Made by a program: the position numbers and the translations under genes. Below, in pieces: positions 772-44,274 of a stretch of DNA of 64,000 nucleotides. This DNA comes from a virus (taxonomy: Duplodnaviria; Heunggongvirae; Uroviricota; Caudoviricetes). Location of the stretch: positions 28,950 through 92,949 of the IMG/VR virus record IMGVR_UViG_3300029582_000367; one strand, written 5' to 3'. Below the pieces are notes generated by a model. It was not told where the DNA came from and searched no databases. It saw only the letters and a list, made by a program, of their open reading frames with translations. The first letter of the stretch is position 1, and each line of letters opens with the position of its first letter.

Positions 772-1639
772 ATCCGCCGCACCTCCACAAGTTCTTAATC
801 TTACCTTCATCCTACCAAAACAGAGGAGGATGTCAACCGCCCAGCAGCTCCAAAATGAGGACAGGGAAGTGGTACAATTGAAAATTTACGCCTTCTACTT
901 TAATTGCAAAATTTTTTGCCAGAGGTATTGCAAGTCTGTTTTAATTGCGGGAAAGCCAATTAGGTAGAACCAATTATCATACCACATCACGCCGTCCAAA
1001 AGGTTTCATCAGTGAAACACCTGAAAATTTCAATCATATCATATCTCACATATCAAAACGTTGCGGGGTACGCAACTTTTTTTGCAAAATTTGAGCATAG
1101 CACATTCAAAGGGGTAGATGATTTCATCTGTGAAACTCATGTAAAAAAATAGAGCGAGCCGGAAATCGGCTCGCTCTACGAAATGGAGGGACACTGTGCC
1201 ATGGTTAAAAACACAGTATCTTACCCATAGGATACCACATCCAACTATGCACCGCAAGAGTAAAAAGCAAAGAAGCAGGCCGCAACTCCTGCTTCTTCGC
1301 CAAGGGAGAAAATCATGCAGAGACATTTGTGCCAATGCAGGACTTCTATGTTCATATGATAACATATGTGAGATTGTTGTGCAATACGGAAAACTGCGAT
1401 TTAACGCTCTATGAACAAATATGGGTGAACTACTCGGCAATGAATTACCGAGCTTCCTGATTCATTGACTACAGCTTGTAGAGTTGAACCAATGGTATCA
1501 GACCTACTTGTCTAACACAGTCTCCTCAGGCTTAAAATCGGGTGGTTCCCACCCTACTCAAGGATTCATAACCACAATAGAGAACCGGACGCGCTCATCT
1601 CGGCTTTGAAAAAACGAGTTTTCCCGCTTGGTTCTAATA

Positions 1640-2685: not shown

Positions 2686-2960
2686 TCATAGCGGATATTC
2701 AACCTTTTTTGTGTTCCTTGTGCATAGCATGAAAGAATATACCATTCGCATTGGTAATTCTCAGGTACACACGCGAGGTCGATTCCTGCTTCGCAGACCG
2801 CGCCTCTCGCCGTGAGGCGGGAGGTCTTACCAGTCTCCACAGGCGTAACTTTCGGCTCATCCTGCCGTAGTAGGGTTTGCCGGTTACGCTGCGGTGCAGG
2901 TATCCTTTGCCTTTCTTAAAATATTGATTGCCGCATTGATGTCGCGGTCGTGGTGTGCGC
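2686..2960 (-). ncRNA. predicted omega-RNA (reRNA) of tnpB copy 1: 3' end of tnpB + right-end scaffold; guide expected just beyond ~2686
   Basis: conserved structured right end shared by both copies; by analogy with established TnpB omega-RNA architecture. Confidence 0.5.
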
Positions 2961-4002
2961 TGCATTGGGGGCAGGTCCATTCCCGAACCTTTTCATCTTT
3001 CACAGCGGCGTTCTTGTAGCCACAAGAGCTGCAGGTCTGGCTGCTGGGATAGAACCGGTCGATTTGTATGAACGTGCGTCCCGCCCACCGTGCCTTGTAC
3101 TCCAGCATCCGGAAAAACTCAGCCCAAGAGACATCAGCCACGGCCTTTGCTTTCTTGTGATTCTTGACCATCCCTTTGATGTTGAGGTCTTCCACTGCGA
3201 TGACTTGGTTCTCGTCAACGAGCTTCCGACTCAGCTTATGGGCATAGTCTCGACGCTGATTTACAACACGTTCGTGGATGGTTGCTATCTTGCGCCGCTG
3301 CTTCTCATAGTTGGAAGAACCCTTCCGCATACGAGACAGCTTGCGCTGTTCGCGGGCCAGTCGTTTCTCACTATGGATTAAGCAATGAGGGTTTTCGTAG
3401 ATGTTACCGTTATTATCGGCGGCAAATACATGAAGCCCAACGTCAATGCCGACCTCCGTGTTCAGCACCGGCAGCGGTTCAACCTCCTCTTTACAGAGAA
3501 CGGACGCCCAATACTTACCGGTGGCACTGCGGGACACTGTGATATTTACCGGAGCTCCGGTAACGGCACGTTTATCCTTACCGCGCTTTACCTTCCCAAT
3601 GGAGGGAATCTGGACAAACTTCTCGGTCACAATGACCGAGCCATCTGTGGTAAAGCTCTGCTTGGGATTCTTCCGTCCCTTGAATCTCGGATATCCCACC
3701 TTGCCTTTGCCCTTTTTGCAGCGACGGAAGAACCCGTCGTAGGCGTCACAGAGGTGCTGTACCGTAAAATCCAAGGCGTGCCGGTTACAGCTACCCAGCC
3801 AAGGCAGATATGCCTTCATCTCCGTCAGGAGTTTCTTCATACCGTAGTATGAGAGGCTTTCGCCACGGCGCCGGTATGCCTTGGACTTCCGCTCAAGGAA
3901 ATGGTTCCACACAAACCGGCAGCACCGGAAGGTGTTCTCAATCGCCGCTACCTGAGCTTCTGTGGGTTTGATGCACAGCTTGTAAGCCCTATAGATTTCC
4001 AA
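2884..4002 (-). CDS. tnpB: TnpB RNA-guided endonuclease (OrfB, RuvC-like + zinc finger CSSCGY...CPQCSAHHDRDINAAINI)
   Basis: 372 aa; C-terminal CxxC-CxxC zinc finger and DRDINAA RuvC-III-like motif typical of IS605 OrfB. Confidence 0.9.
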   Translation of the reverse strand: MEIYRAYKLCIKPTEAQVAAIENTFRCCRFVWNHFLERKSKAYRRRGESLSYYGMKKLLTEMKAYLPWLGSCNRHALDFTVQHLCDAYDGFFRRCKKGKGKVGYPRFKGRKNPKQSFTTDGSVIVTEKFVQIPSIGKVKRGKDKRAVTGAPVNITVSRSATGKYWASVLCKEEVEPLPVLNTEVGIDVGLHVFAADNNGNIYENPHCLIHSEKRLAREQRKLSRMRKGSSNYEKQRRKIATIHERVVNQRRDYAHKLSRKLVDENQVIAVEDLNIKGMVKNHKKAKAVADVSWAEFFRMLEYKARWAGRTFIQIDRFYPSSQTCSSCGYKNAAVKDEKVREWTCPQCSAHHDRDINAAINILRKAKDTCTAA

Positions 4003-4240
4003 CGCTCACACTCCTTTCTGTAGAATTATTCACTCTCCTTGCATAGACCCCACACTAAAGCTGGAATAGTCGCAGTGTCCCTCTATACGCCTTGTCTCTG
4101 AGGCAAGATTTTCAAAAAATCAACTCTCGCACGAGAGTTGTTTTTTTGCGTGCGTTTCCTGTGCTTTCCCGTGCGTTCTTGCGTGTGTTTTGCGTTAATC
4201 TTGCGGGGAACTTGCGTGGGAATGCGCGGTAGAACAGGCA

Positions 4241-4585
4241 TCAACCTCCGAAGAAGAACCGCCACATGGGATTTTCGTTCACATCCGGTTTGGAAGTGTC
4301 CGCAAACACCTTGGTGTAGTACGCAATGTGCTCATCCGAAAGCGAAGCAAAATCCTCACCCTGTGCGCCTACCACGAAGAACGGGCCGTAGAGAATATCA
4401 CCCGGTATCTTGCGGTTTGGCTCCATACCATTGAACTTTCCTTCCTCATTGCAGCAGAGGATAACGCCCGGTTCCATACCAACGACTTCGATGTCTCCGC
4501 CAACCTCTTCTTGGATGGCGTGCAGCTCATTTTCAATTTCCTTCACGTAGGGGGCTTTCGCAGGTTCCACTTTCAGAATCTTCAT
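4241..4585 (-). CDS. hypothetical protein
   Basis: ORF, minus-strand operon context. Confidence 0.5.
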   Translation of the reverse strand: MKILKVEPAKAPYVKEIENELHAIQEEVGGDIEVVGMEPGVILCCNEEGKFNGMEPNRKIPGDILYGPFFVVGAQGEDFASLSDEHIAYYTKVFADTSKPDVNENPMWRFFFGG

Positions 4586-7811: not shown

Positions 7812-7848
7812 GAAGGCCACCCATGGCGGGTGTCCTTCTTGTTGTTAA
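7812..7848. terminator. bidirectional terminator hairpin (AACAAGAAGGCCACCC..GGGTGTCCTTCTTGTT)
   Basis: 14-bp perfect stem. Confidence 0.6.
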
Positions 7849-8492
7849 GTACGATTAAATGATGAATTTTCCAAAAGATTCTGGGCAAGCATATGCTTAA
7901 TAGACTCAGGGAACACTTTCGTTCCATCCTGAAATGTCACAGTATCATATTTACTTACTGCCGCGTCTTTGGAAAGAATAAAATCGACAAATTCTGCGTC
8001 GCGGCTGTTTTCAATAGCCTTATCCTTGACACGCAGAGTCCTCGGAACATAGCGGTCTTTAACGAGATTCCCATTTTTATCAGCAAACGCCTCTAAGCCA
8101 ATGGTAAAATCGAGATTGGTTACGCCAATTTTGTATGTCAGTGTTAATGTCTGAAAGTCTTTTACAACGCATACAAGACTATTGGTAAGGGAGGGAAGCA
8201 TAAGTAGGCAGAGTAATTTGTTTTTTGCACTGGTGAAAGAGTGCTGACTGTCAAAATAAAACTGTGCCGTTGTCAATTTAGAAGACCTTGCCATGTTATA
8301 AAAAGACTGTGCGTTCAAAATAGAGTTGACACCAGTTAAGTGCATGAATCGGTCTGTCTTAAAAACGACTTCAAAAAACTCGTTACCAAACACATATAAG
8401 AACATCTTGCCAGCAAGTCCGTTACTATATACATTAGAGGCCGTAATAATCTGGTTTCTTACAAGCGCTTTTTTGTTCGCTTTGTTTGCCAT
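7845..8492 (-). CDS. hypothetical protein in AT-rich (~38% GC) cargo segment
   Basis: GGAGAAGG RBS before ATG 8492; GC much lower than surroundings. Confidence 0.55.
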   Translation of the reverse strand: MANKANKKALVRNQIITASNVYSNGLAGKMFLYVFGNEFFEVVFKTDRFMHLTGVNSILNAQSFYNMARSSKLTTAQFYFDSQHSFTSAKNKLLCLLMLPSLTNSLVCVVKDFQTLTLTYKIGVTNLDFTIGLEAFADKNGNLVKDRYVPRTLRVKDKAIENSRDAEFVDFILSKDAAVSKYDTVTFQDGTKVFPESIKHMLAQNLLENSSFNRT

Positions 8493-8907
8493 AAACCTTC
8501 TCCATTCGACATATACGTCTAAAAAATAGGGAGGAGTGGGTTTCACTCCTCCCTTACTTTTTGGTTGAGAGTTTTCTGCTGGTTGTCAGCCGTGACATTC
8601 CTCAGCGGAACATCTATTGGCGCAAGTAATTTAAGTCCCTTGCGTGGACTACAACCGTTGCTGCTCGTTGCCAGCCACGACATCCAGTTAAGATGCCAAC
8701 AGTTATGGGTGTTTACCCTGTCCCATATCCAGCACAACTTTTTGCAGTGCTCTCACACTGAGAAGCATTACTACTTCCACACATAGTATATGCTTTTTTT
8801 CTGAAAATGTCAATCACTTTTCAAACTGTTTCAAAACTTAATTAAATCTGTTATCGCAATGAATTGCTACCCAAACAATAAAGTCTGTAATAGCCTACAT
8901 CAGCCTG

Positions 8908-9180
8908 TTGCTCGGATATTCAACCTTTTGTGTGTTCCTTGTGCATAGCATGAAAGAATATACCATTCGCATTGGCGATTCTCAGGTACACACGCGAGGC
9001 CGATTCCTGTTTCTCAGACCGTGCCTCTCACCGTGAGGTTCGAGGGCTTACCAGTCTCCACAGGCGTAACTTTCGGCTCATCCTGCCGTAGTAGGGTTTA
9101 CCGGTTACGCTGCGGTGCAGGTATCCTTTGCCTTTCTTAAAATATTGATTGCCGCGTTGATGTCGCGGTCGTGGTGTGCG
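8908..9180 (-). ncRNA. predicted omega-RNA of tnpB copy 2
   Basis: same conserved right-end scaffold as copy 1; flanks differ upstream of CGGATATT. Confidence 0.5.
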
Positions 9181-10223
9181 CCGCACTGGGGACAAGTCCA
9201 ATTCCGAACCTTTTCATCCTTCACAGCGGAGTTCTTGTAGCCACAGGAGCTGCAGGTCTGGCTGCTGGGATAGAACCGGTCGATTTGGATGAATGTGCGT
9301 CCCGCCCACAGTGCCTTGTATTCCAGCATCTGGAAGAACTCGGACCAAGAAACATCAGCGACAGCCTTTGCTTTCTTGTGGTTCTTGACCATGCCCTTAA
9401 TGTTGAGGTCTTCCACTGCGATGACTTGGTTCTTGTCAACGAGTTTCCGACTCAGCTTATGGGTATAGTCTCGACGCTGGTTTACAACACGCTCATGGAT
9501 GACTGCTACCTTGCGCCGCTGCTTCTCATAGTTGGAAGAACCCTTCCGCATACGGGATAGCTTGCGCTGTTCACGGGCCAGCCTCTTCTCGCTATGGATT
9601 AAGCAGTGAGGGTTCTCATAGGTGTTGCCATCACTGTCAGCGGCAAATACATGAAGCCCAACGTCAATGCCGACCTCCGTGTTTAGCACCGGCAGCGGTT
9701 CAACTTCCTCTTTACAGAGAACGGACGCCCAATACTTACCGGAGGCACTGCGGGACACCGTGACATTTACCGGAACTCCGGTAACGGCACGTTTATCCTT
9801 ACCGCGCTTTACCTTCCCAATGGAGGGAATCTGGACAAACTTCTCGGTCACAATGACCGAGCCATCTGTAGTGAAGCTCTGCTTGGGATTCTTCCGTCCC
9901 TTGAATCTCGGATATCCCACCTTGCCTTTGCCTTTTTTGCAGCGACGGAAGAACCCGTCGTAGGCGTCGCAGAGGTGCTGTATCGTATAATTCAAGGCGT
10001 GCCGGTTACAGCTACCCAGCCAAGGAAGATAGGCCTTCATCTCCGTCAGGAGCTTCTTCATACCGTAGTACGAGAGACTCTCACCACGGCGCTGGTAGGC
10101 CTTGGACTTCCGCTCAAGAAAATGGTTCCACACGAACCGGCAGCACCGAAAGGTGTTCTCTATCTCCGCTGCCTGAGCTTCTGTGGGTTTGATGCACAGC
10201 TTGTAAGCCCTGTAGATTTCCAA
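9105..10223 (-). CDS. tnpB: TnpB RNA-guided endonuclease (copy 2)
   Basis: 372 aa, ~95% aa identity to 2884-4002. Confidence 0.9.
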   Translation of the reverse strand: MEIYRAYKLCIKPTEAQAAEIENTFRCCRFVWNHFLERKSKAYQRRGESLSYYGMKKLLTEMKAYLPWLGSCNRHALNYTIQHLCDAYDGFFRRCKKGKGKVGYPRFKGRKNPKQSFTTDGSVIVTEKFVQIPSIGKVKRGKDKRAVTGVPVNVTVSRSASGKYWASVLCKEEVEPLPVLNTEVGIDVGLHVFAADSDGNTYENPHCLIHSEKRLAREQRKLSRMRKGSSNYEKQRRKVAVIHERVVNQRRDYTHKLSRKLVDKNQVIAVEDLNIKGMVKNHKKAKAVADVSWSEFFQMLEYKALWAGRTFIQIDRFYPSSQTCSSCGYKNSAVKDEKVRNWTCPQCGAHHDRDINAAINILRKAKDTCTAA

Positions 10224-10250
10224 CGCTTACACTCCTTTCTGTAAAGCTAT

Positions 10251-10946
10251 TCATTCTCCTTGCATAGACCCCACACAAAACTTTGGATAGTCTGTTGCTC
10301 CCCAATACTCCTGAGTAATCCTAACCCAGTCGTCATACTTGCCCGTAATCTGCGGTGCCGCCGTGAACGTGCTGCCTTCTGCGTGAAGTCCGGCAACACC
10401 GGAGCGAATGAGCATGAAGTCATACAGTGCCATAGTGATGGCAAACGCCTCATGCGCCCTATTACCGCCCGTGACCGCATATTCCTGCAGCGTAGTGTCA
10501 CGTGTGCATGGCTTCTCGATGAGCGCCGTGGGAATTTCACCGTTCTCACGCTCCAGAAACACCGGAATCTTTACGCCGGCATTTCCCATCCCAACGGGAT
10601 ATGCGTGGAAGATGTCGCCGCAAAAGTCCGCCGTGATGATATTGAACGGCGCCTTCTCCAGCTCCACAGCGTTGAGGTAAATACGCGCCACGGGCATCAT
10701 CTCCAACAGCAAAGCATACGGCTCAGAGATACCTTGCTTCTTATCCCTCCTCGCAGCAAAGAAACCACGGACAGGCTGCGACACAACCATCTCCCGCGTA
10801 CAGAAGACGCCGTTCGCGGCCATGGATGAGCCTGTAGGCGCATCGCTGACCGTGAAGCGGCCTACGAGAGCCTTGGAAGGCATCTCGTAGAGCTCAAACC
10901 TCACGTCACCGTCCTGCGTCATGGACGGAAGCATCCTGACGGTCAC
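10251..10946 (-). CDS. hypothetical protein; last ~13-20 codons encoded by IS copy-2 left end (probable 3' truncation by IS insertion)
   Basis: ORF stop 10251 lies inside sequence conserved with copy-1 left end (to ~10312). Confidence 0.5.
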   Translation of the reverse strand: MTVRMLPSMTQDGDVRFELYEMPSKALVGRFTVSDAPTGSSMAANGVFCTREMVVSQPVRGFFAARRDKKQGISEPYALLLEMMPVARIYLNAVELEKAPFNIITADFCGDIFHAYPVGMGNAGVKIPVFLERENGEIPTALIEKPCTRDTTLQEYAVTGGNRAHEAFAITMALYDFMLIRSGVAGLHAEGSTFTAAPQITGKYDDWVRITQEYWGATDYPKFCVGSMQGE

Positions 10947-13213: not shown

Positions 13214-13317
13214 TGGTATACACAGCCCTGTTATTTCAGGGCCTTATACACCTGTGGCAACTGAGAAAACGGTGCTACTGCAGGTATACAACCCTGCTAT
13301 TTCGGGGCCTTATACAC
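13214..13317 (-). CRISPR. CRISPR-like mini-array A: 2 palindromic repeats (36-38 nt, GGTATACAaCCCTGyTATTTCgGGGcCTTATACACC) + 1 unique 30-nt spacer
   Basis: repeats 13214-13251 and 13282-13317; spacer TGTGGCAACTGAGAAAACGGTGCTACTGCA; same repeat family as arrays B, C. Confidence 0.55.
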
Positions 13318-13450
13318 CCAGCACAGGCATATTCAGTTCCCGAAAGTGCTGGTGTCAACTCTCACTTGACAAACCAGCTAACAGAGTATTCCTGCTTCCA
13401 CGACAACCATGCATCTCCACAGGCGTAAATTCCGGTCATACCGTCCGTAC
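13318..13450 (-). ncRNA. conserved ~130-nt scaffold/leader module A, homologous to TnpB right-end (omega-RNA scaffold) region
   Basis: minus strand AGTACGGACGGTATGACCGGAATTTACGCCTGTGGAGA...GAAGCAGGAAT shares exact 15-mer TTACGCCTGTGGAGA and 11-mer GAAGCAGGAAT with tnpB right ends; starts 27 nt after stop of upstream gene. Confidence 0.5.
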
Positions 13451-13476
13451 TCAATATTTTCTGCTCTCGCTTGATT

Positions 13477-13932
13477 TCAACTTAGTTCAGCAAGGACAAA
13501 ATCAGGGAAACACTTCGGAATCTTGAAAGTGCGTCCTGTCTCGTTTCCTGCCCCATCCATCTCTTTGGCATAGTGACAGCGGCGACTTGTAGGCAGCAGC
13601 GGGTCCAGTTCAAATTGCCGAACCACGGCATCGCCACGGGAGAGCAGGGAAGGGGTAACGAGCCTTCCGACGAGGTAGTGCTGGATGACGGAGATGCAGG
13701 CTTCGGGGTGCTGGGCGTTTGCCCTCTGTACCTGAGCGTTTGGAGTATCCCGATAATCGCTTCCATCGTAAGGAGCCATTCCCATGAACGTTATGTAGTA
13801 CCAACGCACCTTTTCACAGTCGAAGACGATAGCTGACCTTGCTGCTCTCGCAATCCGGTCTGTATTCTGCCTTTTGGCATAGCCGGCGCTGTATGTAAAG
13901 ACACGCCAGCGATTGTTGCTCAAATTCTCCAT
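13477..13932 (-). CDS. hypothetical protein
   Basis: ORF. Confidence 0.5.
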   Translation of the reverse strand: MENLSNNRWRVFTYSAGYAKRQNTDRIARAARSAIVFDCEKVRWYYITFMGMAPYDGSDYRDTPNAQVQRANAQHPEACISVIQHYLVGRLVTPSLLSRGDAVVRQFELDPLLPTSRRCHYAKEMDGAGNETGRTFKIPKCFPDFVLAELS

Positions 13933-13981
13933 TTAATTACCCACCAAGTCATGCGGTCGTAGAAGGAATGAATTAGGTATA

Positions 13982-14162
13982 GGTATACTGCCTGTCCTGA
14001 GGTATACAACCCTGTTATTTCGGGGGTTTATATACCAATCGAACCGCCATTCAGATAATCCGTAAGGTATATAACCCTGATATTTCTGGGCTCTATACGC
14101 CTGTCTCCTCAAGCGACAGATTATATGGTATACACCCCTGTCATTTCAGGGCCTCATACACC
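13982..14162 (-). CRISPR. CRISPR-like mini-array B: 3 repeats (14001-14036, 14066-14101, 14127-14162), 2 unique spacers (29, 25 nt) + degenerate distal half-repeat 13982-14000
   Basis: 36-nt interrupted-palindrome repeats, spacers unrelated to each other; degenerate repeat at scaffold-distal end as in CRISPR arrays. Confidence 0.55.
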
Positions 14163-14294
14163 CAACACAGGCATATTCAGTTCCCTAAGGTGCTGGCATC
14201 ATCTCTCACATGAAACCCAGCTAACAGAGCATTCCTGCTTCTACGATGACCATGCATCTCCACAGGCGTAAATTCCGGTTATACCATCCGTACT
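14163..14294 (-). ncRNA. conserved scaffold/leader module B (TnpB-right-end-like)
   Basis: ~90% identical to module A and C; begins 9 nt after stop of MTase gene. Confidence 0.5.
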
Positions 14295-14302
14295 TGCATT
14301 TT

Positions 14303-15357
14303 TTAGAGCGCCAGCCGCATTTGGACATCACCTACACGACGCCGTGCAAGCTCGGCATACTCTTCGTTCAGCTCAATACCGATGAACTCGCGTCCATAGC
14401 GATGAGCCACAATGCCCGTCGTCCCGCTTCCTGCGAAGGGGTCGAGGACAATATCACCAGCCTTTGTTCCTGCAAGGATACAAGGCTCAATGAGCTTCTC
14501 AGGGAAAGTCGCAAAGTGCGCCTCCCGCGTTCCCTGTGTTGCAACGCTCCAGACATCACGGCGGTTTCTTTTACCGGTCCTGTTCTCGACGTTCCCGTGT
14601 GTCTCACGTTCCGCCACAGCGCTGTTATCAAAACTGCGATTGTTGGTATAGGCGCCGCCCCCACGGAATGACTTGGCATTGCCTCTGCGCCGTCTTGTAT
14701 TGGGGCGAAGTGTACCTTCGCTTCCCGCTACCTCAGCGTTATTGTAGCCAACGGCATCTTCCATAACGGCCTCATAGTCGTAGTAGTAAGTCCGTGACTT
14801 ACTGAGGAGGAATATATACTCGTGGCTGCGGGTAGGGCGGTCTTTCACGCTTTCCGGCAGTGCATTGAGTTTCTGCCACAGGATATCGCTTCTCAGATAC
14901 CAACCATCGGCTCTCAGCGCGAAGGCGAGCATCCAAGGGATACCCAGCAAGTCCTTAGGCTTGGCGTCCTCACTGGTAACGGTCTTTTTCAGGCGCCCCA
15001 TGACCGACCCCGTGTTGGTACTCTGCTTCGTGTTTTTCCCGCCGGCGTCCGAATGACGCCCGTCCGCATTGCGTCCTTTGCCGCTTCCTGCGTAGCTGTC
15101 GGCGATATTGACCCACAGCGTGCCATCCGGCTTCAGGACTCGCTTCACTTCGTGGAAGACCTCCACCAGCTTCGCAATGAACTCCTCCGGCGTATCTTCC
15201 AGCCCGATTTGCCCATCCACTCCGTAGTCACGGAGCTGGAAATAGGGAGGAGAGGTGACACAGCACTGTACGCTCTCGCTATCCAGTTGTCTCAGGACTT
15301 CAAGGGCATCGCCGCTGTATATCACAAATGACACCTCCAGTTTGCGTTCTTCACGTT
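14303..15357 (-). CDS. DNA methyltransferase (beta-class N6-adenine/N4-cytosine; motif IV SPPY precedes motif I DPFAGSGTTG)
   Basis: TSPPY and VLDPFAGSGTTGIVA motifs; start placed at GTG ~15357 with GGAGG RBS (ORF-track start 15415 reads through array C repeat). Confidence 0.8.
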
Positions 15358-15378
15358 CGCTCAGGCCACGCAACATAA

Positions 15379-15617
15379 GGTATACAACCCTGTTATTTTG
15401 GGGTTTTATACACACCGTGCGAGGGGGTGTAAGGACAACTCTATATGGTATACATCCCTGTTATTTCAGGGTATTATACGCCCCTTGCAATCCGCAGGGC
15501 GTATGCCAGTGTAAGTATAAAACCCTGTTATTTCGGGGGGCTTATACACCTGTGCCGCCTATCAGCCACTCGTCCCGTAGGAGTATACAACCCTGCTATT
15601 TCGGGGTCTTATACACC
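15379..15617 (-). CRISPR. CRISPR-like mini-array C: 4 repeats (15379-15416, 15447-15482, 15515-15550, 15583-15617), 3 unique spacers (30, 32, 32 nt)
   Basis: same 36-nt palindromic repeat family; spacers unique. Confidence 0.55.
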
Positions 15618-15750
15618 CGACACAGGCATATTCAGTTCCCTAAAGTGCTGGCATCATCTCTCACATGATTAACCAGCCAACAGAGTATTCCTGCTTCACC
15701 GACGACCATGCATCTCCACAGGCGTTAATTCCGGTTATACCGTCCGTACG
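15618..15750 (-). ncRNA. conserved scaffold/leader module C (TnpB-right-end-like)
   Basis: as modules A/B. Confidence 0.5.
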
Positions 15751-15765
15751 CATTGAAATTTTTCT

Positions 15766-15807
15766 GAGAGGGCTATTTAAGATTTTTAGGTCTTAAATAG
15801 CCCTCGT
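15766..15807. terminator. perfect palindrome GAGGGCTATTTAAGA-TTTTT-AGGTCTTAAATAGCCCTC (bidirectional terminator)
   Basis: 17-bp perfect stem. Confidence 0.6.
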
Positions 15808-17157: not shown

Positions 17158-17223
17158 GCGATTTACTCTCCTTTCTTACTGGAGTATTTAAGATTTGATG
17201 TGTTTTCCCACAAAACTTAATTT

Positions 17224-18708
17224 TCAGGCAGGGATAAAAACCATGCCAACATTCTTTGCGAGAAGCGCACACCTCTTTGTTAAAACCCTTGCTCCTTTCG
17301 TAGAATTGTAATAATTTGGTGTACCATTATTCCGTCCTGATGACCCCTTAAATACTCCAACAATCCCATCAAAATCCATCATCGCCCCCGGCATGATACG
17401 AGCCATGTCCTTGTACTGGGGTGAGTGAGGCCTTACGGTGAGCTGCGATACCGCAGCGTCGCCGTAAGCCTCGCGGAACTCCTCAAGACTATCGGACTTT
17501 TGCTCAATGGCCTTATGCCGGTTTGCTGCAACGACCTTGCCGTCCAGAAGGTACTTCCGGTCAACCATTTGGCGGATACAAGCCTGCCGGTCGTGCCGGC
17601 GGAGCTGCTTCAACTCAAAGGGTTCGACAGGTGCAGAGACCTTCGTATCTGCATCCAAAATGGAACAGGCGATACAGTAGGCATCCGTATAGTGTTCCTT
17701 CGGCACATTCTTGGCAATGCGGAAGCCCTTGGTGGACTTACCATCCGTGGCATAGACATCGTAGGGAGTCTCTCTTCCGAGGTATTCCATGAGGTGAGGG
17801 ATAATCTGGTTCAGCACGCTCAGGGCGTGGTACTTTTTATTCATACCGCCCTTGCGTGTGACCAGTTTTTCCGCCCACGCCTTGTCCTTGTGGACGAGGT
17901 CGTGATGCCTCGCACAGAGCCCACACCGGTTTGCCAGCGTCTCGCTCCCACCCTTATGGCGTGGGACGACATGGTGATAATGGTCAATGGGCTTCTTGCA
18001 GAACAGGCAATGTCCGTCCTGCTGTGCGTACACCGCATCCTTCACGGAGCCCAGCCCGTACAACGGTCCCTGCTGGTATTCCCATCGACGGATATTGGGA
18101 TTATCCATCGCCATGAAAGCAAAGCGGTTTAGCTCCACTACCACCTTTGTGATGGGTAGAACCTTTGCAATCTTCGCAATCAAGTTGATGTGGGTCTGCA
18201 GCAGATGGTTCGCCGTAGGTGTCAACCAACCCACAGGGCGGCTGCGGTTATTGAACCGCGCCTCCTTATTGCGGATGTAATGACACACAACGGGCTTCTC
18301 GTAGCCGGGGAGCAATCTCTCGATGGTGTTGCTTTCCACGGTAGTCCCAGCAGCTATCGCACGACGCTGGCGCTTCCTGCGCCGGTCCTGTGTGCGATGG
18401 TTTCTCCGAAACGCAGCACGCTTCTTCATCAAGAGAGGTACTTCCTTGTTGCGGGTCTCCAAATGTGCGGAGAACACGCAGGAGCCGTCCTCCTTGACGA
18501 CAGCAACGCCAATATTCGTCCTGCCGGGGTCAATGCCAAAAATCAGGTCTTGGGTGATGTCAGGGGTATCATAGTTCAACTGGATGGTAAACGGGGTGGT
18601 ACAAACAACTCGTGCTTTCTTTTCCTTCAGGAGAAGGCGCACATAGCAATATCGAGTTGTCGGCATCAAAGGTTTACCGTCTTTGTTTTGCACATAGACC
18701 ATTGTCAT
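17224..18708 (-). CDS. iscB: IscB OMEGA RNA-guided nuclease (PLMP domain + RuvC-I/II/III + HNH)
   Basis: N-terminal KPLMPT (PLMP), GIDPGRTNIGVAV (RuvC-I), HNH CLFCKKPIDHYHHVVPRHKGGSETLANRCGLCARHHDLVH, RuvC-III EHYTDAYCIA; 494 aa; GGAGATGAG RBS. Confidence 0.85.
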   Translation of the reverse strand: MTMVYVQNKDGKPLMPTTRYCYVRLLLKEKKARVVCTTPFTIQLNYDTPDITQDLIFGIDPGRTNIGVAVVKEDGSCVFSAHLETRNKEVPLLMKKRAAFRRNHRTQDRRRKRQRRAIAAGTTVESNTIERLLPGYEKPVVCHYIRNKEARFNNRSRPVGWLTPTANHLLQTHINLIAKIAKVLPITKVVVELNRFAFMAMDNPNIRRWEYQQGPLYGLGSVKDAVYAQQDGHCLFCKKPIDHYHHVVPRHKGGSETLANRCGLCARHHDLVHKDKAWAEKLVTRKGGMNKKYHALSVLNQIIPHLMEYLGRETPYDVYATDGKSTKGFRIAKNVPKEHYTDAYCIACSILDADTKVSAPVEPFELKQLRRHDRQACIRQMVDRKYLLDGKVVAANRHKAIEQKSDSLEEFREAYGDAAVSQLTVRPHSPQYKDMARIMPGAMMDFDGIVGVFKGSSGRNNGTPNYYNSTKGARVLTKRCALLAKNVGMVFIPA

Positions 18709-19025
18709 GTGCGCTCATCTCCTTTCAGTAGTGTCTCGCCTCCAGAGGAGGCGGTAGTGTCTCCCTTACCTCGGCGTATGCTTGGCAGAGCTGCGAGCTG
18801 GGAAAACCCGCAGGTGCGTCCGTTCCCTCTACCTGAGGTGCTTACATACGTCGGTGTGGCTGTGGCTATAAGACTTTTTGTGGGTTCTCCACATCAAATC
18901 TAAAATAGCCCAATGGCACATTGAACTTATGGTTACGGAACATATCACAACGGAGGGTGTTGCAGTCTTTTTTTGGCAAAAGAAATGGTCCAAATCTCAT
19001 CACGGCAAAAGCACCCGCGCCCTAT
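18709..19025 (-). ncRNA. predicted IscB omega-RNA (5' guide + scaffold) immediately upstream of iscB
   Basis: ~315-nt non-coding, hairpin-rich region between a copy of the shared promoter (19026-19062) and iscB start; established IscB locus architecture. Confidence 0.5.
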
Positions 19026-38028: not shown

Positions 38029-39075
38029 TCAGGCTCTAACATATCGTGCCTTCTTGGACATTCCGATACGTTTAATGCTCCCTTCCTTCACCATGCGTCC
38101 AAGCACAGCCTCCACGGTGGACGGGCTTACATCAGGATGAATGGCGCATATCTCCGCTTTGGAAATTGGCATCAGGCTGCCAAGTACCGTAGCTTCGATT
38201 CGCGTCATCTTCGTGATTTTCTTCCCATTGACGACTGCAAACCGCTTATCCAACTCCTTATAGCACTGATACAGTATGGACAAGAAGTTTTGAATAAATG
38301 GCGCATAGTCGTTGTTGTTCTCCATCCAGCCCTTCGAGGATTGCTCCAGTGCGTCGTAATAATACGCCTTGTGATGGTTGATTTGTTCCTCGAAAGAAAT
38401 GTACTTTCCTACATCGAAGCCGTTTTTGTAGAGCAGCAGAAGTGAGAGCAATCTCGACATTCTGCCGTTACCGTCGCGGAAAGGATGGATACACAGGAAG
38501 TCCAAAATAACGCAGGGAATAAGAAGAAGCAGGTTGATATTGGAGTTGGAACAGGCATCCAAATAGGCCAGTTCCAGTTGCTCCATAGTAGCCGGTGTCT
38601 CTGCCGCAGGTGTGGGACGAAACCTCACACGCCGCGTGCCATCCGCCGCGACTTCCAGAATCACATTGTCATCTGTTTTGTACTGCCCACCGTTCTCGTC
38701 GCCTGCGACTGCCATCATGGTTTCATGGAGCCGCAGAATGTCAGGAACGCCGAAAGACAGGTACTCATATCCTGAATGCACAGCGTTGAGTGCATCTCTG
38801 TATCCGGCAATTTCCGCCTCATCATGGTTCAGAGGCGCACTGCTGTGGTTTACGATTTCCGCAATGCGCTTGTCGCTGGTCACAATGCCCTCAATGGCGT
38901 TGGAGCTCTTTACTGACTGAACTCGCGCAATGGATTCCAGTTCAGTGAAGACTTTTCCAAACTCCTGCTTACGGAAGCCGGCTTCAGTACGAAGAGAGTA
39001 GATTTTGCTCGTGATGTTCACAAGGCTTGCAGGAAGCAGCCCGTTATCGAGGAAAGAATAATCAAACTTTCTCAT
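38029..39075 (-). CDS. fic: Fic/Doc family protein (HPFRDGNGRMSR) with C-terminal winged-helix
   Basis: canonical Fic motif HPFx[DE]GNGR. Confidence 0.85.
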   Translation of the reverse strand: MRKFDYSFLDNGLLPASLVNITSKIYSLRTEAGFRKQEFGKVFTELESIARVQSVKSSNAIEGIVTSDKRIAEIVNHSSAPLNHDEAEIAGYRDALNAVHSGYEYLSFGVPDILRLHETMMAVAGDENGGQYKTDDNVILEVAADGTRRVRFRPTPAAETPATMEQLELAYLDACSNSNINLLLLIPCVILDFLCIHPFRDGNGRMSRLLSLLLLYKNGFDVGKYISFEEQINHHKAYYYDALEQSSKGWMENNNDYAPFIQNFLSILYQCYKELDKRFAVVNGKKITKMTRIEATVLGSLMPISKAEICAIHPDVSPSTVEAVLGRMVKEGSIKRIGMSKKARYVRA

Positions 39076-39150
39076 AACACCAGCTCCTTTCTGCACATTA
39101 TTATACATCTTTATATGCAGAAAATCAACTCCTTCCTGCAGCAAATGGGC

Positions 39151-39441: not shown

Positions 39442-41670
39442 TTAGACCTTCAGCCGTTTCTTGACGATTTTGACCATTGCCTTGGGGAAGGTGGACAGGT
39501 CAGTAATGTCAAGGAACTGGTCGCCGTAAATCTTCTTGAGGTACGCTTTGTCGTCGCCGATAGCTGCTGCAACAATCTCGACACCGCGCCGCCGATTGCG
39601 TGCTACGATGTCCTTGATATCCTTCGCCGCAGAATCTCCGCCATAGGAATCGTCGTTCGGCTTGCCGTCCGAGATGATAATGAGGAGCTTCGTGCGCTCA
39701 GGTCTCGCATTCAGCAGGTTCGCAACGACCTCCAGAGCTGCACCGTCACGGTTACAGCCTCCGGTGGAGAGCTTGGCAAGGCGATACTTGTCACGCTTAC
39801 CAGCCTTCAGGAAGTCCGTATAGACGAACAGGTTGACCCTACCGTGCATGGTCACGTTGTGGCCGTACACAGCGACAGGAACATGAACACGCTCTGCATA
39901 GTCATGCAGGAGCATGGTGGCCTTCATAGCGGCGCCCATGCGCTGTCCGCACATGGAGCCGGACTGGTCAACGAGAACAGCCACGGCCATGTCAGGCAGG
40001 TCCTGCGGCAGCTTGGTGTCGCTGAAGTACCGGCAGTCGGGACGCCACATATCATTGGCTACGATATCCCTACCGTACATCCGATTTCTGCGGACATCGC
40101 CATCTTGCAGGTCTTTCAGTTCCTGCTGCATCAGCTTCGCCAAACGCTTGGAATACTGTTTCACATCCTCCATCATTTCTCCGTAGAGCTTGATGTTTGC
40201 GGGTGTTACTTCAACCTCGCGTTTGACGTCGATTTTATGACCCTTGTGCGTGGAGCTGCGGTCCATGATGTCAACATCAGCGATGATTTGGGACTTCAAA
40301 TCCTGTTCCATCTGAGCTTCGGCCATGTCACCGGCAACGGAGGAAATGATGGTCTGCAGAACATTTGCCAACATATTGTCAGCCTGCTCCTGCTTCTCAT
40401 TCTTATCCTTTCCATCGCCGTTCTTACCAGCCACAGCAGCGGGAACGTTGCCCTTATTGGCATCATTACCGCCGGAACCGCTGCCGCCCTTTTTGCCCTT
40501 TTTCTTACCAGCAGACTGAGCATCCTTGGTAGCTTGCTTGGCTACGTTGGAAGCCTTCTGGTTCTTGGGCATCTGAGAGCCGCCGCCATTCTGTGCGCCC
40601 TGAGCGATTTGCTGGAGCACCTGCTGAATGGCATTTGCGCTGGGCTGGGAGACACCTCCGCCGCCCTGCTGGTTCTGGCTGTTTTGACCGCCGCCGGAGT
40701 TGCCGCCGGAAGAGGACTGGCCCTGCTGCCCCCCCTGACCGTTCTGGTCGGAGCCGGACTGCTGACCTTGCCCCTGCTGGCCTTGGCCTGCCTGAGCATT
40801 CTGCTGCTTGTCACACTTATCTATTGCATCCTTGATGTAAGGCCACATAAAGAGAAGCATCACATTGATTTGAGCATACAGCTCTTTAGGGTTATCCGTG
40901 TTGGTGGCAAGCTCAATGGCCTGTGAGATGTCTGTCAGCTTCTTGGCGTACTCATTGGTATAGAGCGTCTGCTCATCCGCAACGAGAATTTCACCGAAGC
41001 GTGCGAACTGGAGAACGAGGCTTGTCATGATAGACAGCGGCTCATTCTTGTTATTCGTATAGCCTTCCAGCGTGTGAAGCTGTCCCTGAAGGGAAGATGC
41101 TGCCATCTCAATACCACGTGCAACAATGCCGCCGTAGTAGTCGCTCATACGCTCCTCGTCGTGTGCGTCGATGATGCAGTTGACGAGTTCGTCCCGCAGC
41201 GACTTGAACACCTTGCGGTATTCAGGATGCTTCAGCGCCTCCTTCATCTCATCCAGTTCTGTCTCGTCGTCCGGTTCAGGCATCCGTCCGTAGAGTGTGC
41301 CGTTCTCTTCCAATTCTTTGTCTGCCAGCGCATCGGCGCGGAAGTCGTGGAATCGGATGTGGGCCAACTCGTGGTAGACGATACCCATAACCGTTGCGAA
41401 TCGTGAGGAGGGGAGCTTATACCACGTGATGACACTATTCGCCGTATTCTGATAAAGATTATTCCCATCAGTACAGGCGGTGATGTCTGAGTTTGGGTTA
41501 TGCATCAGAGAAACGGAGATGTGCTTGTCAAGGTCCTTCGTCATCGAATCGACTGTCGCCTGCACATGACTCCGAAACGCTTCACTGGTGTAGATGTCAG
41601 CATCCGTGAGCTTCTCGCTCATTTCATTGGCACCCACACGGATTTGCCTCCAGATAGATTTCTGGTCCAT
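39442..41670 (-). CDS. VWA-domain protein (MIDAS DQSGSM) with Q/G-rich low-complexity linker
   Basis: VAVLVDQSGSMCG...ISDGKPND vWA fold; GQGQQGQGQQSGSDQNGQGGQQGQ repeat. Confidence 0.75.
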   Translation of the reverse strand: MDQKSIWRQIRVGANEMSEKLTDADIYTSEAFRSHVQATVDSMTKDLDKHISVSLMHNPNSDITACTDGNNLYQNTANSVITWYKLPSSRFATVMGIVYHELAHIRFHDFRADALADKELEENGTLYGRMPEPDDETELDEMKEALKHPEYRKVFKSLRDELVNCIIDAHDEERMSDYYGGIVARGIEMAASSLQGQLHTLEGYTNNKNEPLSIMTSLVLQFARFGEILVADEQTLYTNEYAKKLTDISQAIELATNTDNPKELYAQINVMLLFMWPYIKDAIDKCDKQQNAQAGQGQQGQGQQSGSDQNGQGGQQGQSSSGGNSGGGQNSQNQQGGGGVSQPSANAIQQVLQQIAQGAQNGGGSQMPKNQKASNVAKQATKDAQSAGKKKGKKGGSGSGGNDANKGNVPAAVAGKNGDGKDKNEKQEQADNMLANVLQTIISSVAGDMAEAQMEQDLKSQIIADVDIMDRSSTHKGHKIDVKREVEVTPANIKLYGEMMEDVKQYSKRLAKLMQQELKDLQDGDVRRNRMYGRDIVANDMWRPDCRYFSDTKLPQDLPDMAVAVLVDQSGSMCGQRMGAAMKATMLLHDYAERVHVPVAVYGHNVTMHGRVNLFVYTDFLKAGKRDKYRLAKLSTGGCNRDGAALEVVANLLNARPERTKLLIIISDGKPNDDSYGGDSAAKDIKDIVARNRRRGVEIVAAAIGDDKAYLKKIYGDQFLDITDLSTFPKAMVKIVKKRLKV

Positions 41671-41691
41671 GCGTCATTTCTCCTTTCTTAT

Positions 41692-42114
41692 TTACTTGCG
41701 CCGGTTCTTGAAAATTTCAACAGTGAATTCAAGGCAGAAATCTGCCACCTGCAATCTATCACTCGAATTTCCTGTAAATACAGGCTCAACACCGTTAGCG
41801 GCTGCCATTCTGTTGATGATATTACAGGCCTCTGCTGCAGCGTTGTGAACCGCTGTGCGTCCTCTGTCAATGGTCTCTACTGCATCCCTGAGGTCCTCGC
41901 CTTCGAGTCTATTGTGAGCAATGATGATGCGAGTTTCGCTCATATCAACCGTTTTCACATAGTCGAGAAAGGTCTGAGCACAGGTGTTTTCGACGAGGTC
42001 ATGAATTCTCTCAGCGTTAGGAGCATTGTTTTTCAGACCTTCTCCAATCTTGGCGCAAAGTGTCCTGTAGTTCTCGTAGTTAAAGAACTTGGCGTTCTTG
42101 TAGTTATAAGTCAT
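41692..42114 (-). CDS. hypothetical protein
   Basis: GGAGAAGACC RBS before MTYNYKN. Confidence 0.5.
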   Translation of the reverse strand: MTYNYKNAKFFNYENYRTLCAKIGEGLKNNAPNAERIHDLVENTCAQTFLDYVKTVDMSETRIIIAHNRLEGEDLRDAVETIDRGRTAVHNAAAEACNIINRMAAANGVEPVFTGNSSDRLQVADFCLEFTVEIFKNRRK

Positions 42115-42191
42115 GGTCTTCTCCTTTCTTACTTTCGGTCCCGAAAGCAAGAAAAGAGGCCCCATGCCTCTCTTCTCCTTTCAGGACAAGC

Positions 42192-44069
42192 CTACGCCAC
42201 CTTGCTGATGACCTGCGCCGCATTGGAACGAATCTCGTTCTGCTCGACGGGGTCATTCGTGCATTTGGCGATGAGGCACGTGTTAATGTAATCTTCCAAA
42301 TGAGCCATGTATCTGTCGTCACACTGCACGCAGCAGACGAGAGACTCCAGCTCGCAAATAGTGCAGGAACCTTCCGTGATTTCCTTGTCGGCGCAGTAGC
42401 TCCGAATCTGCTCGAACACGTCGTACAGAGCGTTCAGCGTCTTGTCGTCACGGCTCCAGCCGGTGTTGTACTTGATGCGCTCCAGCATAGCCTGCTTTTC
42501 GATTTCAGTGCTGTCGAAAATCATCCGGCAACGCCGAATAACAGACTGGTCGATGGGGCGGCAGGAAGCATAGCCGACGTTATCCGTGAATACCACAACG
42601 GCATCCTTCTGACGATACGTAAAACCGCCGTCCACCAGCGGAATCATAGCACCCGGCAGGTCGTACTGGTTCAGTGCGACCATAACGCCGGAGTCCTTGA
42701 TACGGCTGATTTCCTGAATCTCGCAGATGTAACCGCGAGAAACGGCTTTCACGAAAGCGGACTCGACCACCTTCACAGGGGAAGTGCAGCCGGCGCGGGC
42801 AACCAACAGCTCAGAATACTTTGCGAAGCATTCCTCAGATGTGATGCCCGTGCCATCCTCGCCCGTCATGGTCGTCCACGCGGATTCGGGGTCGAAGGAA
42901 ATCTCATCGAACGTGGGAAGTTCTCCACGCGCCGCATCCACGGGATTGCAGGGGACGAACTCAGAAATCAGGTCCTTCGCCAGCATATCGGTATGGCAGG
43001 TCAGCTCCAGCCGAGGAGTGTGCAGGATGCACGCCAGAACCTTCGTGCCGGTAGACTTACCGTAACCGGTAATGCCGCGCCACAGGAAGTTGCGGAAGGG
43101 TACGCGCATATTGGACGTAGCGACGATTTTGTCGGCCATCTCGATAACCTCAGGCTGAACCTTGAAGTCATCATCGAAGGTGGGAATCAGCAGTTCCTCG
43201 TCGGGCGTCCACGGGTGTGCGTCAGCCCACGCTGCGTATCTGAGCTTGGCAGCCTTCACGGTCATGCCCTTGGTAGAGCTTGAGGTGCTGTTGGCGGCCA
43301 TTGTGCCACCGATGATGGTAGGTGTGCCGACAATGATGGTGCCGTTGAAAGCGCCGTTGTTGACCTTCTGCCGCGTCAACGTATCCATGTTCCCGTTCTG
43401 GACGTTCAGCGGGACTTTGCCCGTCTCACAGCCATAGTAGAACATATCACTGAAGATATACAGATAGTTGAAGGCGGTAGATGCTTCCACCATGTGAGCG
43501 CCCCAATCAGCGGGGTACTTGGCGCACAGGGCGAGAATCTCGTCACGGACGGTCTTGAGTTCCGAGTTGTCATCCACGACAGCCAACTCCGGCGCCTCGT
43601 AGTAGAGGGACAGGACTTGGGGTGTCATTGCCAGCATAGCGCCGCTGAGGTCGATGTCGTCAGACTCAGAACCGATAGACGGAGTACCCGCCCACTGGCC
43701 GGAAGGCATCGTCACGGCGGCACCCAGTTTACCGACAGAAGGCGCATTGGTCTGGAACACCGTTTTATAGGTGAACAGCAACGTCTTCACGGTCGTGCCG
43801 GTAGAGTTGTCGCGGAACTCAGCGCTCCACAGATTGTCAGAGACCTGCAGCAGAGCATAGTCCTCGACAAAGCCGGGAATACCCAGATATGCCAGAAATG
43901 CTCTGGTTGCATAGGCGTGCAGCGTAGATTGCCCCTTCATAGACGGTCTCTGCGGCGCATTCCACTTGGAGAACGTCGTCGTGCTGCGGTTAGGCATTTG
44001 GTTCAGCCCGAAGGGGAGGGTACTGATGTCGAACCCTTTCTTACTTCTGAAGAGTACACAATTTGCCAT
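42192..44069 (-). CDS. AAA_5/MoxR-like P-loop ATPase (GITGYGKST) with ~380-aa N-terminal unknown domain; likely partner of VWA protein
   Basis: Walker A GITGYGKSTG, Walker B-like ICEIQEISR; first gene after module M3. Confidence 0.65.
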   Translation of the reverse strand: MANCVLFRSKKGFDISTLPFGLNQMPNRSTTTFSKWNAPQRPSMKGQSTLHAYATRAFLAYLGIPGFVEDYALLQVSDNLWSAEFRDNSTGTTVKTLLFTYKTVFQTNAPSVGKLGAAVTMPSGQWAGTPSIGSESDDIDLSGAMLAMTPQVLSLYYEAPELAVVDDNSELKTVRDEILALCAKYPADWGAHMVEASTAFNYLYIFSDMFYYGCETGKVPLNVQNGNMDTLTRQKVNNGAFNGTIIVGTPTIIGGTMAANSTSSSTKGMTVKAAKLRYAAWADAHPWTPDEELLIPTFDDDFKVQPEVIEMADKIVATSNMRVPFRNFLWRGITGYGKSTGTKVLACILHTPRLELTCHTDMLAKDLISEFVPCNPVDAARGELPTFDEISFDPESAWTTMTGEDGTGITSEECFAKYSELLVARAGCTSPVKVVESAFVKAVSRGYICEIQEISRIKDSGVMVALNQYDLPGAMIPLVDGGFTYRQKDAVVVFTDNVGYASCRPIDQSVIRRCRMIFDSTEIEKQAMLERIKYNTGWSRDDKTLNALYDVFEQIRSYCADKEITEGSCTICELESLVCCVQCDDRYMAHLEDYINTCLIAKCTNDPVEQNEIRSNAAQVISKVA

Positions 44070-44087
44070 GGTCTTTTTCTCCTTTCT

Positions 44088-44274
44088 CCCAGCCTGTAAT
44101 AAGGACTTACGGGAATCCAAAAAATGTTATATATAGAAAAAGACAGTCACTTCCCAGAAAAGGGAAGTAACTGTCTTGATTCTTTGTGGTGACTTGAAAA
44201 CGGAGATAATCTCCTTTATAAAAATAGCTTCGTAATTATAATTCTATACTACCACAGTTTGATATTTTGTCAAT
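44088..44274 (-). promoter_or_regulatory. promoter-leader module M3 (terminator hairpin with compensatory changes)
   Basis: hairpin AAGACAGTCACTTCCC-AGAAAA-GGGAAGTAACTGTCTT differs from M1 at paired positions. Confidence 0.7.

Follow-up and report, generated by a model that had tools for sequence, protein, structure and literature searches.

Spacer arrays joined to omega-RNA-like scaffolds in a human-gut mobile element, with a nuclease-dead TnpB homologue as their likely effector

The 64-kb stretch of DNA analysed here (the window; positions 28,950 to 92,949 of IMG/VR record IMGVR_UViG_3300029582_000367) contains three intergenic loci, A, B and C, at each of which a conserved module is joined to a short array of hairpin repeats and spacers. 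The loci lie between co-oriented minus-strand genes and all of them read on the minus strand, as a scaffold of ~135 nucleotides (nt) joined to 2, 3 or 4 copies of a 36-nt hairpin repeat. A repeat search of the window returned a single repeat family of nine copies, grouped 2+3+4 and spaced 61-68 nt from start to start, together with a ~170-nt module whose three copies share 86-91% mutual identity. A 25-nt repeat pattern allowing up to 3 mismatches found eight matches in the window where 0 were expected. A preliminary description of this DNA had reported three arrays of 2, 3 and 4 repeats at these positions, each behind a conserved leader, with a degenerate terminal repeat in array B. All of this is confirmed, the arrays far beyond chance and the leader at ~135 nt and 86-91% identity. 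The components are as follows.

Scaffold A, 13320-13453, minus strand: found by module identity and an nhmmer scaffold model.
Array A, 13217-13318, minus strand: repeats at 13283-13318 and 13217-13252, with one 30-nt spacer at 13253-13282.
Scaffold B, 14164-14296, minus strand: found by module identity and the nhmmer scaffold model.
Array B, 13978-14162, minus strand: repeats at 14127-14162, 14066-14101 and 14001-14036, with a degenerate partial repeat at ~13978-13995.
Array B spacers, minus strand: 14102-14126 (25 nt) and 14037-14065 (29 nt).
Scaffold C, 15619-15752, minus strand: 86-91% identical to A and B, found by the nhmmer scaffold model, and carrying the 15-mer discussed below with 1 mismatch.
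Array C, 15379-15617, minus strand: repeats at 15582-15617, 15514-15550, 15447-15482 and 15379-15414.
Array C spacers, minus strand: 15551-15581, 15483-15513 and 15415-15446.

The six spacers of the window measure 25-32 nt and each is unique. Its repeats are ~65-85% identical to each other, less uniform than those of typical active CRISPR arrays. The genes flanking the loci are two open reading frames (ORFs) of unknown function, of 529 and 151 amino acids (aa), an N6/N4 DNA methylase (14303-15415) and a LexA-like repressor. Array A ends ~25 nt ahead of the start codon of the 529-aa ORF, and a promoter-like TTGAAA-16-AATATT, one weak consensus match, is found at 13480-13453, just upstream of scaffold A. 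Elsewhere in the window are two TnpB genes (2884-4002 and 9105-10223, minus strand), whose 372-aa products are 94% identical and have the RuvC D/E/D residues intact, and, on the upstream side of the LexA-like gene, a gene for an IscB-like protein (17224-18708) with RRXRR, RuvC and HNH motifs. Motif and domain searches thus agree with the earlier identification of two TnpBs, an IscB and a DNA methylase between arrays B and C. The reported lack of cas genes also held, in that no cas-family Pfam or PHROG match was found among the ~40 window ORFs scanned, which are a part of the window ORFs. No cas1/cas2 adaptation genes were seen in these ORFs or in the gene tables of related loci, whole elements not being scanned.

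The same organization recurs across a family of related elements. One IMG/VR scan yielded 102 loci, mostly on contigs of 40-190 kb; relative loci that were fetched carry L-numbers. The scaffold-array unit occurs ~190 times in the fetched relatives, which are ~165-190-kb elements of human-gut metagenomes. Profile searches of these loci plus the window recovered 127 arrays of 1-7 repeats, 121 of which start directly after a scaffold; on near-complete contigs (172-192 kb) the count is 7-9 arrays per contig. Over 20.5 kb the window is 99.99% identical to a human-gut contig of 164,705 bp in ENA (ERZ28657718, XIEH16-1_SAMEA3449170 scaffold_74), where it corresponds to approximately 62,881-126,880, with 62.9 kb more to its left. 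Apart from similarity to the methylase, no relative of the module or locus was found in the phage and plasmid collections.

In their behaviour the arrays resemble CRISPR arrays. Their repeat, GGTRTAYA-NN-RCCC-N-GAAATAACAGGGTTGTATACC, is sharply bounded at 36 nt, and neither flank carries any information. Where it varies, the position is unpaired or the change is compatible, through wobble pairing, with an 8+4-bp hairpin. The majority of unique spacers (79 of 115) are exactly 30 nt long. The distal repeat is the most degenerate, with a mean score of 28.8 versus 37-39. Turnover is polar as well: of 22 array pairs at homologous sites, 16 have the distal spacer in common and 5 the proximal one, and spacer orders such as 0-1-2-3-4-5, 12-0-3-4-5, 3-4-5 and 5 keep the distal spacers and differ at the scaffold-proximal ones. 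An example is array C, whose homologues in L002, L078, L235 and L236 have distal spacers in common and a different scaffold-proximal end, some relatives having one extra proximal spacer. At array A, the same two repeats in L236, L240 and L241 enclose an unrelated 30-nt spacer within a backbone that is 93-99% identical, an exact swap of a 30-nt spacer between conserved repeats. Sharp repeats, spacer size and spacer turnover between strains therefore bear out the CRISPR-like character that had been proposed for these loci.

The first spacer of array B (14102-14126) is, at 25 nt, unusually short. In contrast to other proximal spacers, it is kept next to the scaffold in 16 IMG/VR contigs and 5 ENA loci, and it may be a fixed, selected guide. 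A comparison of spacer with repeat divergence was discarded due to a biased choice of pairs.

As judged from its sequence, the leader module is a derivative of an omega RNA. An exact copy of the 15-mer TTACGCCTGTGGAGA lies immediately 3' of each tnpB stop codon (2834-2848 and 9055-9069) and in scaffolds A and B; scaffold C and a copy that follows a tRNA-Ser gene each differ from it by one mismatch. With a seventh site at 1521-1535 (two mismatches), the window has seven matches versus 0.11 expected. The 11-mer GAAGCAGGAAT is exact after tnpB1 only, the copy after tnpB2 reading GAAACAGGAAT. The preliminary description had both words shared exactly with the two tnpB 3' ends; this stands for the 15-mer after both genes and for the 11-mer after tnpB1, and fails by one mismatch for the 15-mer in scaffold C and for the 11-mer after tnpB2. 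In an alignment, the stand-alone modules and the tnpB 3' regions are homologous from GTACGG through GAAGCAGGAAT and then diverge, the tnpB-linked omega RNA having a different 3' half without the 36-nt repeat. The first ~75 nt of the scaffold correspond to the generic, RAGATH-18-like core of TnpB omega RNAs. The core motif (CCUGUGGAG...GAAGCAGGAA) is present in the window scaffolds and widespread across 185,579 GTDB species-representative genomes, in Lachnospiraceae, cyanobacteria, Ktedonobacteria and archaea, with tnpB beside it in many bacteria and archaea. Conservation outside the family is limited to scaffold positions ~4-77, and the hairpin repeat is missing from all of those loci.

RAGATH-18 RNAs serve Firmicutes IS607 TnpBs as guide (re)RNAs (PMC11061315). 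In a permissive Rfam search, RAGATH-18 matched scaffold B weakly at 14232-14266, its 26.6 bits (E 0.04) falling short of the gathering score, 44.9; at gathering thresholds the only Rfam match in the window was the tRNA-Ser. Further support for an omega-RNA origin is provided by a natural chimera in one relative, L022, in which the stand-alone 5' half is joined to the tnpB right-end 3' half. The tnpB right end itself ends in a hairpin, GGTATAT...ATATCC, that abuts the flank at the same position as the 36-nt repeat in the stand-alone units. None of the three window scaffolds lies 3' of a tnpB gene, and they are followed by arrayed spacers as guides, not by flank sequence. Core motif and chimera together uphold the earlier suggestion that the leader derives from an omega-RNA scaffold.

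The module is not confined to the three loci within 13214-15750, as had been described, since two more scaffold-like copies lie at 32654-32825 (plus strand) and ~1420-1540 (minus strand). The first of these directly follows the tRNA-Ser and has the same 5' core with a different 3' half. It is without a hairpin array, stops at the start codon of the ORF at 32828 and has conserved counterparts in L031 and L032. In relatives, several full scaffold-arrays begin immediately after a tRNA 3' end (...CCGCCA). The copy at ~1420-1540, TTAAGCCTGAGGAGA ... GGAAGCTCGGTAATTCATTGCCGAGTAGTTCACC, is omega-RNA-like with a different sequence; upstream of it no tnpB can be recognised, and the 206-aa ORF at 1721-2341 has no Pfam match.

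A protein that accompanies the arrays was found in the relatives. When the window TnpB served as a tblastn query, most related loci were seen to have a second homologue, with ~53% identity confined to residues 4-315. This homologue, of ~352 aa, has the first RuvC Asp changed to Ser (GISLGL), lacks the zinc finger and RuvC-III as well as the Pfam TNB domain, and aligns to residues 5-324 of the 408 residues of ISDra2 TnpB; we refer to it as dead TnpB. Co-occurrence was counted in 29 array-bearing contigs, the window included, and adjacency in 29 further loci. Dead TnpB is present in exactly one copy in 26 of the 29 array-bearing contigs, versus 7 with an active TnpB and 8 with IscB. In all 29 further loci a scaffold lies 3' of the dead-TnpB stop codon, at a distance of 55-62 nt (19 loci) or of 1.82 kb with an IscB insertion (10 loci). 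The scaffold is followed by 2-7 repeats in 27 of these loci, the two remaining ones ending inside the scaffold. A RecG-like helicase is a constant neighbour (27 of 29 loci), and dead TnpB, single-copy and in a fixed neighbourhood, is non-mobile. It also represents a narrow lineage: a collection of 5.8 billion proteins holds three 90% clusters, of 370, 147 and 1 sequences, and the nearest relatives beyond them are ordinary full-length TnpBs at no more than 56% identity.

The IscB gene of the window belongs to a cassette of ~1.73 kb (17185-18911, minus strand; the gene plus ~200 nt upstream) that sits at different sites in L054 and L056 and, in 10 relatives, has inserted precisely between dead TnpB and the scaffold that belongs to it. 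Given the sporadic occurrence of both nucleases and the shifting IscB sites, we regard TnpB and IscB as passengers and dead TnpB as the conserved partner, and the proposal that the arrays serve the resident TnpB or IscB was not borne out. The likely effector is this nuclease-dead, C-terminally truncated TnpB homologue. With a nuclease-dead partner, the DNA cleavage envisaged earlier is not expected as the output, and binding or repression would take its place. Synteny with 3300030040_000294 places the dead-TnpB gene ~50 kb beyond the cluster, within the 62.9 kb left of the window, suggesting that the gene lies in that part of the source contig. In one sub-lineage (L004, L005, L243-L252) a half-module, scaffold positions ~13-68, is found in the 5' untranslated region (UTR) of dead TnpB and may be an autoregulatory RNA; a scaffold profile search did not detect it in the other sub-lineage.

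Targets were found for four spacers from four relatives. When 97 pooled spacers were compared with a phage collection by BLAST, two matched one faecal scaffold, MT835962.1, and local searches added two more at the same locus. The locus is chromosomal, being present in ten ENA contigs and in the metagenome-assembled genome 'uncultured Clostridiales bacterium UMGS1457', with housekeeping genes and giant surface proteins around it. The target is an operon of an HTH_17 (xis-like) gene and a tyrosine integrase gene, matched as follows.

Protospacer 1: just upstream of the HTH_17 (xis-like) gene, 27/28 matching.
Protospacer 2: ribosome-binding site and start codon of the xis-like gene, 30/30 matching in L233.
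Protospacer 3: 3' end of the xis-like gene, 29/30 matching.
Protospacer 4: in the tyrosine integrase gene, which overlaps the xis-like gene, 17/17 matching at the repeat-proximal end.

Thus two of the protospacers span the promoter/5'-UTR and start codon of the xis-like gene, and the other two fall within coding sequence. All four are on the sense strand, so that the guides would pair with the template strand. Their 5' flanks read TATTG, GGAGG, TTGCG and TTGGG, with G at -1 in 4 of 4. Characterised RAGATH-18-type TnpBs recognise an AGGAG or GAGGG motif in which dG(-1) is read (PMC11061315), and the G(-1) of the protospacers appears compatible with such a reading. Additional searches gave no further target: 91 non-redundant spacers had no match in a plasmid collection, an IMG/VR scan for the xis protospacer returned the array itself only, and an IMG/VR scan with the integrase N-terminal peptide had no match. 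The target operon has a RAGATH-18-like core of its own ~170 nt upstream of the xis-like gene (L233 9779-9951; MT835962.1 2076-2130). In L233, the 172 nt counted from the GTACGG of this core end exactly at a protospacer start (9952). No TnpB-like protein is encoded at the host target locus.

On balance we think it probable that the arrays are multi-guide arrays of an RNA-guided DNA-binding repressor, TldR-like in its protein and type V-U-like in its layout. Each locus would be a minus-strand transcription unit producing a TnpB-type guide RNA in which the guide-adjacent hairpin is reiterated into a small array, in the order scaffold, hairpin, 30-nt guide, hairpin, guide and so on. One single-copy dead-TnpB gene would lie directly 5' of one unit, with six to eight more units dispersed in intergenic sites, three of them in the window, and the protein would load the array RNAs in trans. 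The complex would then bind complementary DNA beside a short G-ending motif and block transcription instead of cutting DNA, its target being the xis-like/integrase operon of an integrative element in the Clostridiales host chromosome. New 30-nt spacers would enter beside the scaffold, without Cas1 or Cas2. The anatomy of the loci, their linkage to dead TnpB across the family, the polarity and turnover of spacers and the protospacers are observed; transcription of the arrays, loading in trans, repression, spacer insertion beside the first repeat and the presence of dead TnpB in this element are what we infer.

Since the arrays are tied to dead TnpB and have spacers that match an integrase locus, the system looks like a halfway stage from a transposon guide RNA to CRISPR. 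The idea of a TnpB-to-Cas12-like intermediate, raised in the preliminary description, fits and is supported. The full form of this idea is more tentative, and we hold it as a possibility we lean slightly away from: a living omega RNA-to-CRISPR intermediate, its guide RNA unsplit, with the hairpin reiterated and 30-nt spacers gained next to the scaffold free of Cas1/Cas2, by which a gut megaplasmid or phage with 7-9 loci and one dead TnpB would silence the excision/integration genes of a rival integrative element in its host.

Several observations weigh against a repressor of this kind. The dead-TnpB gene is absent from the 64-kb window by tblastn, and its assignment to this element comes from co-occurrence across the family. 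For transcription of the arrays there is one weak promoter match, units 2..n have no scaffold, and no spacer-inserting enzyme was found. Only 4 of ~115 spacers have targets, all at one locus, and no 3' motif and no 5' motif beyond G(-1) emerged from the four protospacers. The spacer searches suggested earlier gave no target for the six window spacers in the collections searched: the six were compared with the window, where chance 11-14-mers only were seen, and with the phage and plasmid collections, and scans of IMG/VR with four of them and of JGI metagenomes with one returned homologous arrays only. Finally, the scaffold does not fold with unusual stability as a single sequence (z = -1.09), and an RNAalifold analysis of 55 scaffolds, which are too uniform, showed little true covariation. 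The covariance and folding check thus yielded the sub-threshold RAGATH-18 match (26.6 vs 44.9 bits) and nothing from fold or covariation, and with so uniform an alignment and such a z score RNA structure is not used as evidence here.

Among alternative explanations, only the scaffold-fused first spacer might be used, the downstream units being an archive whose spacers are advanced by repeat-repeat deletion in a shufflon-like manner. A complete omega-type RNA is indeed found at unit 1 only, and unit deletions do bring older spacers to the scaffold (0-1-2-3-4-5, 3-4-5, 5). In addition, the guide-proximal hairpin of ISFba1 is dispensable for the protein (PMC11061315), and a hairpin alone may not recruit it. 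However, internal repeats are as conserved as the first and only the last decays, and a protospacer-matching spacer is found at array position 5 (L058). RNAalifold also pairs CUCUGUUR of the scaffold with YAACAGGG of the repeat, in an alignment too uniform for covariation, and this possible anti-repeat could permit use of the later units in trans. We consider use of the first spacer alone unlikely, while giving it real weight.

It is less probable still that the array guides serve the active TnpB copies of the window, for competitor cleavage or homing of the units, with the dead homologue irrelevant. The window does contain two intact TnpB genes and no dead one, TnpB and the scaffolds share the 5' omega core, and the L022 chimera unites both RNA types. 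Yet only 7 of 29 array-bearing contigs have an active TnpB, whose RNA differs in its 3' half and its terminal hairpin, and the arrays are never beside tnpB whereas the dead homologue always has an adjoining scaffold. Even less can be said for the arrays being element-borne mimics of a host CRISPR array, served by host Cas proteins including Cas1-Cas2, although their 36/30 geometry, polarity and lack of cas genes recall virus-borne mini-arrays. A 21-mer of the repeat is absent from the 185,579 GTDB genomes, the arrays are joined to an omega scaffold in 121 of 127 cases, and the targets are host-chromosomal, not rival viruses; we regard such mimicry as very improbable. The loci might also be debris of IS200/IS605/IS607 ends, PATE/REP-like hairpins with a solo right end and no guide function, given that the scaffold derives from transposon right-end RNA and that a similar hairpin terminates the tnpB right end. 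This reading is largely refuted, and retains only a slim chance, in view of the sharp 36-mers with 30-nt spacers, spacers swapped at fixed sites with polar turnover, matches of some spacers to host DNA at 29-30/30, and strict linkage of the units to a conserved non-mobile protein gene. Service to the IscB 1.5 kb upstream, near and on the same strand in the window, deserves almost no credence, as its ~1.73-kb cassette is found at different sites and in 8 of 29 contigs, the scaffold and repeat models have no match in its upstream region, and in IscB systems the guide RNA is encoded 5' of the iscB gene and carries the guide at its own 5' end.

A multi-guide repressor built on dead TnpB would resemble several known systems and match none. 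TldRs are nuclease-dead TnpB-like repressors, RuvC-mutated and C-terminally truncated, with one guide RNA downstream and a guide of 9-16 nt (Wiegand et al., PMC10705468). The likeness to TldR lies in the mutated RuvC site, the truncated C-terminus, a non-mobile gene on a mobile element, an omega-derived RNA just downstream and, for two of the four protospacers, promoter/5'-UTR targets. The system described here departs from TldR in that 30-nt spacers are arrayed behind reiterated hairpins, guide loci are dispersed and number 7-9 per element, and spacers turn over from strain to strain. Its origin is also independent, the nearest proteins being active TnpBs at no more than 56% identity, and its targets are xis-like and integrase genes, not fliC or opp. 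The type V variants V-U and V-M, including the binding-only Cas12m, have no adaptation genes (PMC10691335, PMC11013384), and an adaptation module is not required for them (PMC10691335). Common to these variants and our system are a TnpB-derived effector with an array downstream, no cas1/cas2 seen, and an inactive or weakened nuclease that would leave interference by binding. The differences are a full omega scaffold fused to the first repeat, with no separate trans-activating CRISPR RNA (tracrRNA) and no self-sufficient CRISPR RNA (crRNA), arrays that mostly lie far from the effector gene, and an effector of TnpB size (352 aa) without added domains. Among the V-U groups catalogued from metagenomes and still uncharacterised, one may correspond to this system.

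TranC, attributed to Jin et al. in 2025, is said to comprise active nucleases with a split tracrRNA/crRNA and an array from right-end RNA, as an intermediate between transposon and CRISPR. Our system shares with it a TnpB-like protein and a CRISPR array from right-end RNA; unlike TranC, it keeps an unsplit RNA at unit 1 and has a nuclease-dead protein. The similarity of LaTranC (PDB 9JFO) to dead TnpB is weak and local (E 1e-11 over 80 residues). Mini-CRISPR arrays borne by viruses, credited to Medvedeva and to Faure in 2019, are reportedly short like these, with host-type repeats and no cas genes on the element. Together with plasmid type IV systems they form short arrays on mobile elements that lack adaptation genes and are used in inter-element conflict. 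Unlike the arrays described here, those use host-type repeats with host Cas or Csf/DinG effectors and have no omega-RNA scaffold. In full-text searches of the literature, arrays of this kind for a dead TnpB were not described.

The origin of CRISPR from single-guide transposon RNAs has been argued mainly from phylogeny and engineered RNA splits, and here the presumed first step may be preserved in nature. The arrays are abundant in human-gut metagenomes and their spacers turn over visibly, and both the insertion of fixed-length spacers without Cas1-Cas2 and the use of scaffold-less hairpin-guide units are testable questions. If the proposed mechanism holds, nuclease-dead TnpB regulators would be known not only with one fixed guide but also with a guide set that is multiplexed, evolves and is directed against another mobile element, and the 352-aa protein would offer a programmable DNA binder with a natural array format.

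Other features of the region and the element can be noted. Between the LexA-like gene and scaffold C lies a perfect 15-bp inverted repeat with an 8-nt loop (GAGGGCTATTTAAGA / TCTTAAATAGCCCTC; 15768-15805), which is found in L235 too and may be an operator or terminator. The two TnpB elements span 2692-4100 and 8913-10330 (minus strand) and their right ends stop at ...GGTTGAATATCC. Their left flanks contain GAGGG/AGGCG and AGGAG, similar to the AGGAG/GAGGG motifs of RAGATH-18-type TnpBs (PMC11061315). No tnpA is evident beside them, the ORF at 10251-10946 having no Pfam match and that at 4241-4585 being a DUF3846 protein. The element family is listed as viral in IMG/VR, and its phage nature is doubtful, with no phage hallmark among the ~40 window ORFs scanned; it may be a conjugative megaplasmid or phage-plasmid and the 'viral' label wrong. 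In L241 (3875-9960), genes for a coupling protein of a type IV secretion system (TraG/VirD4-like), a TraC-like protein and a CHAP/lysozyme protein take the place of the LexA-methylase segment next to the 151-aa gene. The window has toxin- or conflict-type genes at 7845-8546, 38029-39144, 30705-31496 and 39442-44120. They encode a PBECR4 nuclease, a Fic/DOC protein, a non-specific endonuclease and a VWA + AAA_5 pair, which fits an element rich in inter-element conflict functions.

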